DNA of 64,000 nt from Hormiphora californensis (lineage: Eukaryota > Animalia > Ctenophora), in assembly GCA_020137815.1 (NCBI GenBank), contig CM035359.1, forward strand, positions 4,154,001 through 4,218,000. The letters run 5' to 3'. Below the pieces are notes generated by a model. The model was not told the origin of the DNA, searched no databases, and worked only from the letters and a program-made list of their open reading frames with translations. Numbering within the stretch: position 1 is the stretch's first letter; the number at the start of each line of letters is the position of its first letter. The position numbers and the translations under genes are program-made. Positions 45,601-54,600 of the stretch are shown here, piece by piece.

Positions 45601-48600
45601 TACGTTGTGACGTCACGTGTAACGTCATAGATCGCCTCATCCTACCTGATGACCGGTCACAGGTGCAGATCTCCTCAATCTTGGACTTCTTCTCTGTCGA
45701 CCCTCCTCTGACAGCTGAACAGCCCTCAGGGCAACTTCCCCACTACCCTGAGCCCCTCTCAGGGCCTTTTCACCACTACCCTGAACCCCCCTCAGGGCCT
45801 TTTCACCACTACCCTGAACCCCCCTCAGGGCCTTTTCGCCACTTGATGGTGTGAGATCCACTTCCTCACCACTCAGCTAAGGGAAGATAAGAGATTATTG
45901 TAATTTGAAACCACTGCGTGGGGCGATCCAGCCCGGAAAAAATTCCATTGGCCAAATTCCAAAATAGTCCTAAGGTCTGACGAAGCAAAAATGAAAAGGA
46001 GGGTTTAGTTAATTCGACCTACCTTTGGTGATGAGAAGAGTTTCTTTTTCCTTGGCCCTTCACCATCAACCTCGCAACCATCAAATGAGGTTTGTTTCAC
46101 ATACGTAGCAGGGGAGTATTCCAAATCTGAAGTTATATAATGTAGTTAATGTAGTTATCCAACAAAAAATTATCGTGCAATTTCATCATATATTCCCTTC
46201 TCTCTCTCTCTCTCTCTCTCGGTCCACTACACGCACCACTCCCACATGGGGCCGTGAGGCCCCATGCGAGAGCAGGGTTAAATCCCCCGGACCCGGATCC
46301 TGTTGGATCTGAGGGCCCGGAGGGCCTGCGGAGCTGTAAAGGTAGGGTAGGTAGAACAATGTACATACGGGTAAATTTAACAATGTACATATGGGTTAAG
46401 GAAAGGGGATGATATTAAAAAGGGGGAAGTAAAGTGGGATTAAAGCTCATGGTGACGGAGCACAAGACCTCCTAAACTATCTGCAAAGAAGCCCAATCTG
46501 CTACAATGAATTCTAAGAAGAGACAACTTATCAGGAACTTAAGAAGCAAACCGTCTGAATCTAAGGCAGCCTAAAACAAGCAGGAACGGTTTCGAGCGAA
46601 AAAAAAAATAATACAAAGGATGATGATTACATGTCGAGCCAGAGAGGACAGCCAGCCCGTTCCAGAGAAGCCAGCTGACCCCGTTCCAGAGAAGACAGCC
46701 GACCCCGTTCCAGAGAAGCCAGCTGACCCCGTTCCAGAGAAGCCAGCTGACCCCGTTCCAGAAAAGCCAGCTGACCCCGTTCCAGAGAAGCCAGCTGACC
46801 CCGTTCCAGAGAAGACAGCCACCCCGTCCCAGAGAAGACAGCTGACCCCGTTCCAGTAAGGACAGCTGACCCCGTTCCAGTAAAGACAGCTGACCCCGTT
46901 CCAGTAAAGACAGCTGACCCCGTTCCAGAGAGGACAGCCACCCCGTCCCAGAGAGGACAGCTGACCCCGTTCCAGTAAAGACAGCTGACCCCGTTCCAGT
47001 AAAGACAGCTGACCCCGCTCCAGAGAAGACAGCCACCCCGTCCCAGAGAGGACAGCTGACCCCGTTCCAGTAAGGACAGCTGACCCCGTTCCAGTAAAGA
47101 CAGCTGACCCCGTCCCAGTAAAGACAGCTGACCCCGTTCCAGAGAGGACAGCCACCCCGCTCCAGTAAAGACAGCTGACCCCGCTCCAGTAAAGACAGCT
47201 GACCCGCCCCAGTAAGGACAGCTGACCCCGTTCCAGTAAAGACAGCTGACCCCGCTCCAGAGAGGACAGTCACCCCGTTCCAAAGAATCATCTCCGATGT
47301 AGAACCCTATCAAAAATGGAAGAAGTGGGTTAGGGGGGCCAGTAGAACAAAAACAGTATTGGTTAGCGGGTTAGTGGATAAAGGGGCGTTGGGGGTCCAC
47401 AGTTGGCTGGAAGATGCCTGTTCCACGGGTAACCCTAAGCCGGTGAAGGCGGGGTAGGAACATAATAGTTGGCGTTGATACACTGTGGGCCGCCTAGCCT
47501 TGCCAAGATGTTTTTGTATTTTGTATTTTCTGATCTTTTTCCGTATTTCTGATACACAGCCACGCTCAGCCGCGGCCACACGGACCTGGAAATCGAACAG
47601 GGGGAAAAGGGGATGGGGAAAAAGGTACTCCGTGTGACCCCCGTTGCCCGGGGGAAACCGATTGGAGGTGGTGGCAGGTGGACCAACCTCCCCCCCTCTC
47701 TCTCTCTCTCTCTCTCTCTCTCTCTCTCTCTCTCTCTCTCTCTCTCTCTCTCTCTTTCTCTCTCTCTCTCTCTCTCTTTCTCTCTCTCTCTCTCTCTCTC
47801 TCTCTCTCTCGGTCCACTACACACACCACTCCCGCATGGGGCCGTAAGGTCCCATGCGTGAGCAGGGTTAAATCCCCCGAGCCCGGATCCTGTTGGATCT
47901 GAGGGCCCGGAGGGCCTGCGGAGTAAAGGTAGGTAAAACAATGTACATAGGGGTAAGTTGAACAATGTACATATGGGTTAAAGTAAGGGAAAAACATTAA
48001 AGGGGAGTTAAAGCTCATGGTGGCGGAGCATAAGACCTCCTAAGCTATCTGGAAAGAAGCCCAACCTTCTGGAACGGAGCCTAAGAAGAGGCAACTTATC
48101 AGGAACTGAAGAAGCAAACTGTCTGAATCTAGGGAAATCTAGGGGCAAGCAGGAACGGGTAAAAAGGGTAAAAAAAATAATTGACAATAACAGGGGGGAC
48201 AGCTCGGGAGGTATATTACATGTCGAGAACTTTCCGGAGCGTGTTCATCGAGTTAAAGAGGACTGACTTTTGAAGCTGTGAAGGGTAAATTTGGCGGGTT
48301 ATAGCAGTCAGGTACTTCTCCAGTCGGGGGCTGACTCCGCCAAGAGCTCCGATCACGATAGGGATGACCGTGGCCTTTTTAAGATCCCAAATTCGTGTGA
48401 GCTCCCTCCGTAGTTCTTGGTACTTCTCGATCTTCTCCATCTCCCTGTCCGAGACTGACCTGTCCTTTGGTACAGCGACGTCGATCAGAAGCGCTTCCTT
48501 CTTTAGTTTGTCTAGAAGGACCACGTCAGGTTTACATGCCTCGATGGGGTTATCCGTCTGAATGTGGAAATCCCAGAGGATCTTGCAGTTCTCATTCTCG

Positions 48601-51600: not shown

Positions 51601-54600
51601 CACTTCCGGGAGTATATTTAGGCCAGATGCTGCTAGCCCTGCTAGCATTCGCTGATCAGCCATCTCCTGCGGTGTTACCATGTGTCCAGATTTCTCTATT
51701 GATCTGAACTGGCTTGAGAGTTTGGCACCTGTTAATGGGTCGTGTCCCTTGTCTTCCCATAGGCGTTCGAGCCTCTTCCAGGATCCGGATGTGCCTGGGT
51801 TGCTGCTGTAGTAGCAGTACACCAAGTCTAGGTTCTCTTGCTTAGACCAGACCTTCCTTGGTTTACGGGTGTTAGTACTCATGTCGAATAAGATGAGTAA
51901 GTTTTGGGGGTGAGTTTCAAACCAATCACTGTGTATACATAGTCATCGGTTTGTTAGAAGAAGAGCCGGGTTTGGGGGTCTTAACACTGCCACCGGTGCA
52001 CAGCGGTAACGGAATCCCACCGCCACATTTGGTCCGTTAGTGGATGGTTTACCCGGCCATCCTTGCAGCTTTTCAGCACGAACCGACACTTTCAGCGTAC
52101 GGGTGTGTATCTATATGTCTATATGGTGGATCTGTAACGGGGACATATATGTGAAGCATTATGATCTAACTGGAACGGGGTAAACTATCCTCCCAGGAAC
52201 AGGGTAAACTATCCTCTCAGGAACAGGGTAAACTATCCTCTCAGGAACGGGGCAACTATCCTCTGTGGAGCGGGGTAAACTATCCTCTCAGGTGCGGGGT
52301 AAGGGGTATACTATCCTCTCCGGAACGGGGCAGCTATCCTCTGTGGAGCGGGGTAAACTATCCTCTCAGGCGCGGGGTAAGGGGTATACTATTCTCTCTG
52401 GATCGGGGCAACTATCCTCTCCGGAACGGGGCAACTATCCTCTGTGGAGCGGGGTAAACTATCCTCTCAGGTGCGGGGTAAGGGGTATACTATCCTCTCC
52501 GGAACGGGGCAACTATCCTCTGTGGAGCGGGGTAAACTATCCTCTCAGGTGTGGGGTAAGGGGTATACTATCCTCTCCGGAACGGGCAACTATCCTCTGT
52601 GGAGCGGGGTAAACTATCCTCTCAGGCGCGGGGTAAGGGGTATACTATTCTCTCCGGAACGGGACAACTATCCTCTGTGGAGCGGGGTAAACTATCCTCT
52701 CAGGCGCGGGGTAGGGGGTATACTATCCTCTCCGGAACGGGGCAACTATCCTCTGTGGAGCGGGGTAAACTATCCTCTCAGGTGTGGGGTAAGGGGTGTA
52801 CTATCCTCTCCGGAACGGGGCAACTATCCTCTGTGGAGCGGGGTAAACTATCCTCTGAGGCGCGGGGTAAGGGGTATACTATCCTCTCCGGAACGGGGCA
52901 ACTATCCTCTGTGGAGCGGGGTAAACTATCCTCTCAGGTGTGGGGTAAGGGGTGTACTATCCTCTCCGGAACGGGGCAACTATCCTCTGTGGAGCGGGGT
53001 AAACTATCCTCTCAGGCGCGGGGTAAGGGGTATACTATCCTCTCCGGAACGGGGCAACTATCCTCTGTGGAGCGGGGTAAACTATCCTCTCAGGCGCGGG
53101 GTAAGGGGTATACTATTCTCTCCGGAACGGGGCAACTATCCTCTGTGGAGCGGGGTAAACTATCCTCTCAGGCGCGGGGTAAGGGGTATACTATTCTCTC
53201 CGGAACGGGGCAACTATCCTCTGTGGAGCGGGGTAAACTATCCTCTCAGGCGCGGGGTAAGGGGTATACTATTCTCTCTGGATCGGGGTACCCTATTAAA
53301 GGGAGGTTTAGGGGGTTAGCAGATTAGAATCAGGATTGGTTAGTGGGTTAGTAGATAAAGGGGCATTGGAGGTCCACAGGTGGCTGGAAGGTGCCTGTTC
53401 CACGGGTAACCCTAAGCCGGGGAAGGCGGGGTAGGAACGTAATAGTTGGCGATGATACACTGTGGGCCGCCTAGCCAAGAAGATCTTTTTGTGTTTTGTA
53501 TTTTATGATTTTTTTCCGTATTTTTGATACACAGCCACGCTTAGCCACGGCCACACGGACCTGAAAATCGATCAAGGGGAAAAGGGGATGGGGAAAAGGT
53601 ACTCCGTGTGACCCTGTTGCCCGGGGGAAACCGATAGGAGGTGGTGGCAGGTGGACCAACTCCCCCCCTCTCTCTCTCTCTCTCTCTCTCTCTCTCTCTC
53701 TCTCTCTCTCTCTCTCTCTCTCTCTCTCTCGGTCCTTACCAGGTTGTACAGGTGAGTCAAGGTAGCCAGTGTTGACGACTATGTTGTCAGGAGTCCCTTC
53801 AATAACAGCCGTCCTTCTCTGGTGCTCTTCGTGATCATTAAAACTACCTGGTTTAGCCTGCAAAGGAAAAATAATATATGGATTGGTCACAGGAATAGAT
53901 CACGTTCCACTAACTTTTATTGCTGATGAGATGGTGTTCGTGCCATCGAATCATTTGTTAAATTTGAAGTAAACTTGTTTCACTTTGTTTATATGGATTG
54001 GTTAATAAACACAATCAAAGAGGAAGTTTGGTTTTAAAATTTTAGCGTGATGCTGTGTATCGATGGCGTGAACTTCTAAAACAAAAACCACTCTACTCAT
54101 TATTTACAGTCATTGACACCTGTGTCGGTCGAGACAAAAGACAATAATAGTTTACCTTGAAACAAAATACAGGAGTTTTCCTCCGTTTATCCAACACAGG
54201 GGTGGAACCTGCTGAGCCCACGGCTGTGGAGGAGGCGTGATGACTGGTGGAGGAGGCGTGATGACTCGTGGCAGAGGCGTGATGGCTGGATACGCTGGTC
54301 CCCGCACTTTCCGAACTGGTGCTTATCCGTCCACGGGACTTTTTTCGTAGCAACCGCGTCTTCCGATATCTACCCGTTCTAAAAAGAAGTGTGATTAGAA
54401 TCTTGTATACAGTAGAGGAAATTGGTTCGGGGGAGGGGTCATCCGCTAAAATAAATGGTGGTTAAGGTGGGTGGGTCCAGAGTCTGGACTCCAGGCAGTA
54501 AGGGATTTCCCGTATCTGTCAAAAGTTTTGGGGGTGTAGCCGAGGTCCCCGATCCAGAAAGTATTCCCACAGTTCTGTAAAAACAATTGCTGTTCTTCAT

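Follow-up and report, generated by a model that had tools for sequence, protein, structure and literature searches.

We analysed a 64,000-nt stretch of the genome of the ctenophore Hormiphora californensis (assembly GCA_020137815.1, contig CM035359.1, positions 4,154,001 to 4,218,000), referred to here as the window; all coordinates below are window positions. The subject is a tandem of two retrotransposons without long terminal repeats (non-LTR), a long R4/Dong-like element and a short non-autonomous element, which were delimited, together with a nearby stub, by comparing the window with itself. The locus is laid out as follows:

47811 to 53667, minus strand: full-length R4/Dong-like non-LTR retrotransposon (the long element), 5,857 nt, with one frameshift
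46221 to 47695, minus strand: short non-autonomous element, 1,475 nt
53668 to 53734, minus strand: upstream flank, GGACC plus (GA)31 (the latter at 53729-53668), likely target or duplication
47696 to 47810, minus strand: GA run separating the long and short elements, about 57 units with two interruptions, at 47809-47696
46200 to 46220, minus strand: downstream flank, (GA)10 at 46219-46200
54867 to 54970, minus strand: 5'-truncated 3' stub (87 nt, 54970-54884) plus (GA)8
46127 to 53739, minus strand: predicted intron of the host gene (7,613 nt), flanked by the in-phase exons 53857-53740 and 46126-46023

The elements, GA runs and stub all lie on the minus strand, with the long element followed head-to-tail by the short one and each bordered by GA; no further copies of either are found in the window. 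This confirms the (GA)n-long-(GA)n-short-(GA)n order given in a preliminary description of the same DNA, which had also ascribed the same ends and a diverged 3' untranslated region (UTR) to the two elements. They agree at 127/134 positions in the predicted ribozyme region, 190/211 in the segment that follows it, 218/268 in the upstream 3' UTR and 116/125 in the last 125 nt, so that conservation is highest at the ribozyme (95%) and the last 125 nt (93%) and falls to 81% in the upstream 3' UTR. The 87-nt stub shows 89-91% identity to the 3' ends of both elements. It had been described as a third 3' end at (GA)n, which is correct for its 3' side, where (GA)8 follows, but not for its 5' side.

The short element joins the two ends of the long one. 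Its 3' part is retained as a single block:

46221 to 46635, minus strand: last 12 nt of the open reading frame (ORF) plus 3' UTR, kept in the short element

These 12 nt encode Leu-Asp-Met-stop, the four final codons that had already been noted as preserved. Its earlier description as ORF-less is not strictly right: a 250-codon frame, which has no reverse transcriptase (RT) content, passes through its stop-free variable number of tandem repeats (VNTR). All parts of the proposed architecture, a predicted ribozyme, a VNTR and the tail of a long interspersed nuclear element (LINE), are present, but the inverted orientation of the VNTR had been overlooked. As in SIDE-type elements, the master's predicted 5' ribozyme and 3' UTR are combined without the ORF; the middle is an inverted VNTR and not a plain deletion. 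The head is the LINE's own 5' end, unlike that of a tRNA-derived short interspersed nuclear element (SINE), and ARAGORN reported no tRNA in either the long or the short element.

A scan of metagenomes with an 18-nt pattern returned 14 loci, 12 of them chance matches without further similarity. The two real loci were a long copy (L008) with 92.7% identity that ends in (GA)12 within a different flank, and a second complete short element (L013) with (GA)n at both sides. L013 matches the short element of the window at 391/409 and 393/409 positions at its ends (96%) and has the same linker, junction and VNTR orientation, with about 9 VNTR units as against 27. In the 3' region, short elements are 94% identical to each other and 80-85% identical to long ones. 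Viral contigs contained no relative, either by protein or by 5' pattern.

Sequencing depth was evaluated as summed contig depth, which is not a copy number. Among 22 listed read runs, six from two studies contained at least half of the query words, the best of them perhaps being the source of the window, and four runs were examined. In run X1 host bins had depths of 12-43, compared with 4,478-7,602 for short-element bins and 4,640-13,139 for ORF bins; the corresponding ranges in run X5 were 590-1,858, 250,310-795,193 and 99,852-443,287. Both elements are thus more than 100-fold above the host flanks in two DNA studies. The short-type VNTR, which is only 65-70% like the long-type VNTR, exceeds single host contigs (12-14 and 250-325) by a factor of about 15 to 100 even after division by 27 units. 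Together, the second complete copy, the 94% versus 80-85% identities and the depth describe a multi-copy lineage distinct from its master, as for SIDEs, and support the non-autonomous partner of the preliminary description. To judge from its anatomy, it is likely copied in trans by the protein of the long family. Two contig joints of run X5 (47230/53389 and 46874/53528) connect the short-type VNTR to the 5' UTR at other positions, with sides shorter than 30 nt, and hint at further short subfamilies.

A (GA)n run adjoins 5/5 of the 3' ends and 3/3 of the complete 5' ends, as the proposed homing to GA microsatellites would have it, and is missing from the single truncated 5' end, that of the stub. 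Since an RNA beginning with the ribozyme could not have brought the upstream runs along, insertion is likely targeted to (GA)n, judged by the sequence of few independent sites. Dong in the strict sense targets (TAA)n, whereas every flank seen here is (GA)n. AG-targeting Dong families had been said to be reported from cnidarians. None was found in the literature searched, with Repbase outside the search, and such families may therefore exist; the element called 'DongAg' is from Anopheles gambiae and has a TAA target (PMC3812793), and (TAA)n is given as the Dong target in the majority of insects, mollusks and cnidarians (PMC7998251; these and the other papers cited are represented here by part of their text).

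The flank at 53734-53730 (minus strand) reads GGACC, the element's own terminal pentamer, and lies directly after the splice donor. Among 34 runs that are not element ends, GGACC precedes (GA)6+ only in this flank of the long element, against an expectation of 0.02 that was calculated post hoc. This suggests either an RNA end annealed to the site or a 5-nt stub.

Placement of both elements inside a host intron, as previously proposed, is supported by exon prediction. Four predicted exons (54378-54156, 53857-53740, 46126-46023 and a fourth starting at 45876, the end of which was chosen arbitrarily) have AG acceptors throughout and GT donors at the first three, and when joined they leave one frame of 227 codons free of stops, while the other two frames have 19 and 11. 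Without both elements, the predicted intron would amount to about 82 nt plus one GA run. The stub and both elements run in the sense direction of the predicted host gene, which is a single gene region and does not provide independent observations. Contigs of RNA run X7 span both elements, the linker of the short one included, and are uninformative on transcription or ends, and RNA run X22 gave 4 short pieces that are unlike the elements.

The protein of the long element is encoded in two parts:

49954 to 51882, minus strand: N-terminal ORF part, two Myb/SANT-like repeats (about amino acids 9-85 and 125-199) plus the first half of the RT
48216 to 49976, minus strand: C-terminal ORF part after the frameshift, RT with YMDD, CCHC knuckle and PD..D restriction-like endonuclease (REL)

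Near 49,970 a homopolymer carries a 1-nt frameshift that breaks the ORF. There, 18 contigs of run X1 and 9 of run X5 lack a letter, and the metagenomic L008 has a frame that is open for 933 codons across the same position; given these differences, the break is either specific to this copy or an assembly error. Over 577 codons, L008 and the long copy differ by 74 synonymous and 28 non-synonymous codon changes, as expected for purifying selection on the ORF, and this comparison indicates that the long-element family is coding. The designation of a 5.86-kb autonomous element is therefore right in its length of 5,857 nt and for the family, which has intact members, but the copy in the window is frameshifted as assembled.

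Pfam places RVT_1 in both ORF parts, and the only PDB sequence matches were three R2 proteins, with the endonuclease stretch included. What we take to be the YMDD, CCHC knuckle, RHD and PD..D motifs can be read from an alignment of 27 proteins, in which no N-terminal zinc finger was seen. The order RT, CCHC knuckle and REL endonuclease in a single ORF, split in this copy, is that of R4/Dong elements. The two N-terminal helical repeats are 31% identical to each other and were modelled with a predicted local distance difference test score (pLDDT) of about 90. The best structural matches of the model were mostly Myb, SANT or trihelix domains at Z 5-7, a modest level that is common for helical folds, and included the Myb region of R2Bm (Z 5.5); an atlas assignment to Myb_Rap1 (0.86) has the standing of a lead, and Foldseek returned no match for the N-terminal model at E up to 0.001. 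R4/Dong elements are described as having an RT and REL, a diverged SANT/Myb domain, no zinc fingers, and insertions in ribosomal DNA (rDNA) or microsatellites (PMC7998251, in part). The two-repeat, zinc-finger-free anatomy of the long element, as read from its sequence, matches that description, and its Myb-like repeats, RT, CCHC knuckle and REL endonuclease agree with the R4/Dong-type identity first proposed for it.

Among named relatives, the one nearest to the ORF is a chimeric gene model from Pleurobrachia bachei (69%); clusters from Bolinopsis microptera (52%) and Mnemiopsis leidyi (50%) come next. Three retrieved proteins (P0001-3) have an intact frame and 85% identity to the long-element protein. 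In a quick tree of 51 rows, made up of the C-terminal ORF part, L008 and 49 retrieved proteins, the long-element protein nests with the Bolinopsis and Mnemiopsis relatives. Most relatives have only one Myb-like repeat where the window element has two (51882-51286, minus strand). Two are also present in P0001-3, P0006, P0007, P0124, P0026, P0027 and P0029, which fall into the element's own sublineage and a separate branch, and the doubled repeat is a candidate for the change of target.

Both elements carry further shared features at their ends:

53534 to 53667, minus strand: predicted ribozyme of the long element, hepatitis delta virus (HDV)-like, found by descriptor, with P1 at the GA/element junction +/-1 nt and candidate catalytic C 53544
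47559 to 47695, minus strand: predicted HDV-like ribozyme of the short element, found by descriptor, with candidate catalytic C 47569
53305 to 53533, minus strand: further 5' UTR segment common to both elements, about 90% identity
47811 to 48215, minus strand: long-element 3' UTR, the last ~125 nt of which form two predicted hairpins kept in all copies

The preliminary description had both elements capped by a ribozyme, and an HDV-like fold is indeed predicted at both 5' ends. A descriptor of this fold, composed after the sequence had been seen, matched nothing in 2 x 64 kb except the two 5' ends; it also matched L013, and none of 20 shuffled windows. A nested double pseudoknot of P1, P1.1, P2, P3 and P4 with a cytosine in J4/2 is present in all three complete 5' ends. 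The predicted helices are unbroken in the long element, the short element and L013, with one change in P4 from G.U to G-C, and J4/2 reads TGA in the short element and TAA in the long. The Dong ribozyme cleaves after TAA repeats in vitro, and for Dong and R4 alike ribozyme cleavage takes place at the 5' junction (PMC3774820, in part). The predicted ribozymes are likely active in self-cleavage.

At the 3' end, the predicted hairpins comprise 43 pairs with a single broken cell across four copies. A 7-nt inverted match between ribozyme J1/2 (53657-53651) and the very 3' end (47817-47811) occurs on the minus strand in all copies. The 5'-3' panhandle that this match suggests was discarded: among 300 shuffles, 29, 63 and 37 paired equally well, and the gain on cofolding was no better than for shuffles.

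The unusual part of the element pair is the antisense VNTR:

52166 to 53295, minus strand: long-element VNTR, units of 23/24/31 nt in 78-nt higher-order repeats
46639 to 47287, minus strand: short-element VNTR, some 27 units (23/24 nt each) that are homologous to the long-element VNTR but inverted

The two VNTRs match solely on opposite strands, and 23- and 24-nt unit classes occur in both. Owing to this inversion, the short RNA and the 5' UTR of the long RNA are complementary. Predicted duplexes of 200 x 300 nt have energies of -277 to -296 kcal/mol, compared with -161 +/- 8 for 50 shuffles and -78 kcal/mol for the same orientation; a strong duplex of this kind follows from the inverted homology alone. 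More informative is that predicted antisense-antisense VNTR duplexes are weaker, at only -197 to -219 kcal/mol. Differences between the units are G.U-compatible at 7 sites, mixed at 1 and A.C-only at 0; for the ends that are shared directly, the counts are 17 to 16. The Fisher p value for this skew, 0.02-0.07, is post hoc and treats tandem units that are not independent. The skew hints at selection or editing acting on a real duplex, but a neutral inversion that occurred once and was then homogenised is more likely. We regard as rather unlikely a parasite that docks by RNA, in which VNTR pairing with the master's 5' UTR would capture newly made protein or tune translation and the G.U skew would record selection or editing.

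These data allow us to propose that the locus belongs to a repeated, (GA)n-sited R4/Dong-like family whose short derivative is copied by the family's protein after release by the predicted ribozyme, a reading that we consider probable. Host transcription would read through copies that lie sense in introns or downstream of another copy, and the predicted HDV-like ribozyme would cut at the GA/element junction and define the RNA's 5' end. The conserved, hairpinned 3' end may then be bound by protein from an intact long copy, whose Myb-like repeats and restriction-like endonuclease would nick (GA)n DNA. The GA tail of the RNA, with the terminal GGACC where the site has it, would anneal and prime reverse transcription. 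Every insertion would leave fresh (GA)n targets, and tandems would accumulate. The short family may have been born once, by loss of the ORF and inversion of the VNTR in a sister subfamily, and then have spread in trans like an R2 SIDE.

Several findings weigh against this proposal. A search of Rfam at E up to 5 gave six weak, unrelated matches and no ribozyme family. Loop L3 reads UCC(U/A)AUC and lacks the conserved C and G of HDV-like ribozymes, at positions that we take to correspond to the HDV numbering. Loss of these two nucleotides accompanies the inactive R2 ribozyme of the sow bug (PMC3774820, in part). No compensatory double change was seen in the 43 predicted 3' pairs across the four copies. 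Given the library adapters at both ends of L013, which comes from a short-read assembly and has no unique flanks, this second short element is probably a collapsed consensus. The quick tree contains no named R4, Dong or Rex6 rows, and membership of the R4/Dong clade therefore rests on protein anatomy; no named Dong or R4 protein was among the 120 matches listed in a search seeded with a ladybird relative. In addition, the neighbouring long copy is not, to judge by its sequence, the direct parent of the short element, since it is frameshifted and only 81-95% like the short ends. The flank count is small as well: of the five 3' ends and three complete 5' ends, one flank is shared within the tandem. 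The bare 5' side of the stub and the share of the window taken up by GA/CT runs, 2.1%, have to be added to this.

The flanks bear most directly on whether (GA)n is a target at all. It could instead be a tail that is carried or added, with untargeted insertion and with upstream runs arising from the abundance of GA or by passive accumulation. The stub, with (GA)8 downstream only, fits this explanation, as do the 37 (GA)6+ runs in the window and the origin of one upstream run, out of three, as the tail of the neighbour. We nevertheless hold it to be quite improbable, given that an RNA starting at the ribozyme cannot supply upstream sequence and yet all three complete 5' ends follow (GA)n. The share of GA/CT runs is also small for such an account, and Dong-type elements are microsatellite-specific (PMC7998251, in part). 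That the short element was never retrotransposed and arose by rearrangement in place, or multiplied as a repeat through duplication or gene conversion, is highly improbable. No target-site duplication can be delimited inside (GA)n and L013 is without unique flanks, as this would allow; against it stand a second complete copy with precise ends and a different VNTR length, the high depth, the fixed differences from long copies, and conservation centred on the two ends needed for retrotransposition.

Transcription, for which the preliminary description had assumed a pair without promoters, may also be arranged differently, by a promoter within the conserved 5' region that is independent of host introns, leaving the ribozyme just to trim read-through or tandem RNAs. 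The short element retains, at 90% identity, about 230 nt that follow the predicted ribozyme, and L1Tc/NARTc combine a promoter with a ribozyme (PMC3383444, in part); conversely, the elements and stub are sense to the predicted host gene, as co-transcription expects, within one gene region. We view an internal promoter as possible but doubtful.

Other features of the window lie apart from the tandem. A very young tandem array at 16547-20822 holds 9.5 copies of a 450-nt unit with 99% matches, and two tRNA-Asp(GTC) genes (3704-3776 and 3850-3922) are 146 nt apart. An intronless 640-aa ORF at 25295-27217 (minus strand) has several hydrophobic segments, a serine-rich insert and no significant Pfam match, and by eye its sequence appears receptor-like. 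At 62612-63319 (plus strand), after a 22-nt tandem array (62028-62462), a 235-aa ORF without a Pfam match, unrelated to the element, presumably resembles a LINE ORF1-type protein.

Among the systems with which the pair can be compared, EhLINE belongs to the R4 clade and L1Tc/NARTc to a clade of the apurinic/apyrimidinic endonuclease (APE) type. That R2 has ribozyme-headed non-autonomous SIDEs, as the preliminary description held, is borne out by PMC3414825 (in part): Drosophila SIDEs consist of an HDV-like ribozyme and a 3' UTR, 10-27% diverged from the master. As here, the non-autonomous element is the ribozyme plus 3' UTR of an RLE retrotransposon, and J4/2 of the SIDE differs from that of the master, the change in our pair being TAA to TGA, still a stop. 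The R2 pair differs in clade and in its 28S rDNA target, and it is rare and low-copy, with no VNTR reported in that part of the source; the pair described here is R4/Dong-like, at dispersed (GA)n sites, abundant, and has an inverted VNTR. Dong of Bombyx mori, itself R4/Dong, shares the single ORF that encodes Myb/SANT, RT and REL and lacks an N-terminal zinc finger (PMC7998251), as well as a microsatellite target and a 5' HDV-like ribozyme that cleaves at the junction (PMC3774820, PMC7998251, PMC3812793), again from partial texts, which give (TAA)n there where we find (GA)n and two Myb-like repeats.

In trypanosomes, the master and partner of L1Tc/NARTc and ingi/RIME share a 5' HDV-like ribozyme and 3' end, and tandems are resolved by self-cleavage; L1Tc/NARTc differ in having an internal promoter, and the excerpted source reports no inverted VNTR (PMC3383444). 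EhSINE1, the partner of EhLINE1 in Entamoeba histolytica, has variable internal 26-27-nt repeats and a shared 3' end, but only ~70 bp are shared, the body is unrelated to the LINE, insertion is not targeted and no ribozyme is reported in the text available (PMC2996970). SVA is likewise composite and non-autonomous; it includes a VNTR and an antisense domain for which pairing with the RNA of another retroelement at the ribosome has been proposed. Its antisense part is Alu-like and not the VNTR, it pairs with Alu and not with a LINE, it is dispensable in one subfamily, and the element is L1-driven without a ribozyme; the pairing of SVA and Alu has also been questioned (PMC4859970, in part). Transcription of ribozyme-bearing elements from introns and ribozyme-using SINEs have been noted as well (PMC6765202, in part).

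By analogy, the pair appears to work like R2/SIDE and L1Tc/NARTc. The full-text literature searched, with Repbase and subscription papers outside it so that a catalogued pair is possible, showed no ctenophore Dong, no (GA)n-targeting Dong and no Dong partner. The earlier statement that no such partner had been described stands within that scope, although R2 SIDEs and NARTc already show the general design. The pair takes ribozyme-headed non-autonomous elements beyond R2 and trypanosomes, into a Dong-like family that has another microsatellite target and belongs to an early-branching animal lineage. Such pairs can enlarge tiny introns about 70-fold and stack in tandem, and the short element defines minimal cis ends for the long-family protein. 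The inverted VNTR bears on the idea, put forward long ago for SVA, that a parasite RNA reaches the LINE protein by base-pairing with another RNA; if docking were true, the choice of partner in this (GA)n-targeting, Dong-like ctenophore lineage would be set by antisense pairing between the parasite and its own LINE.

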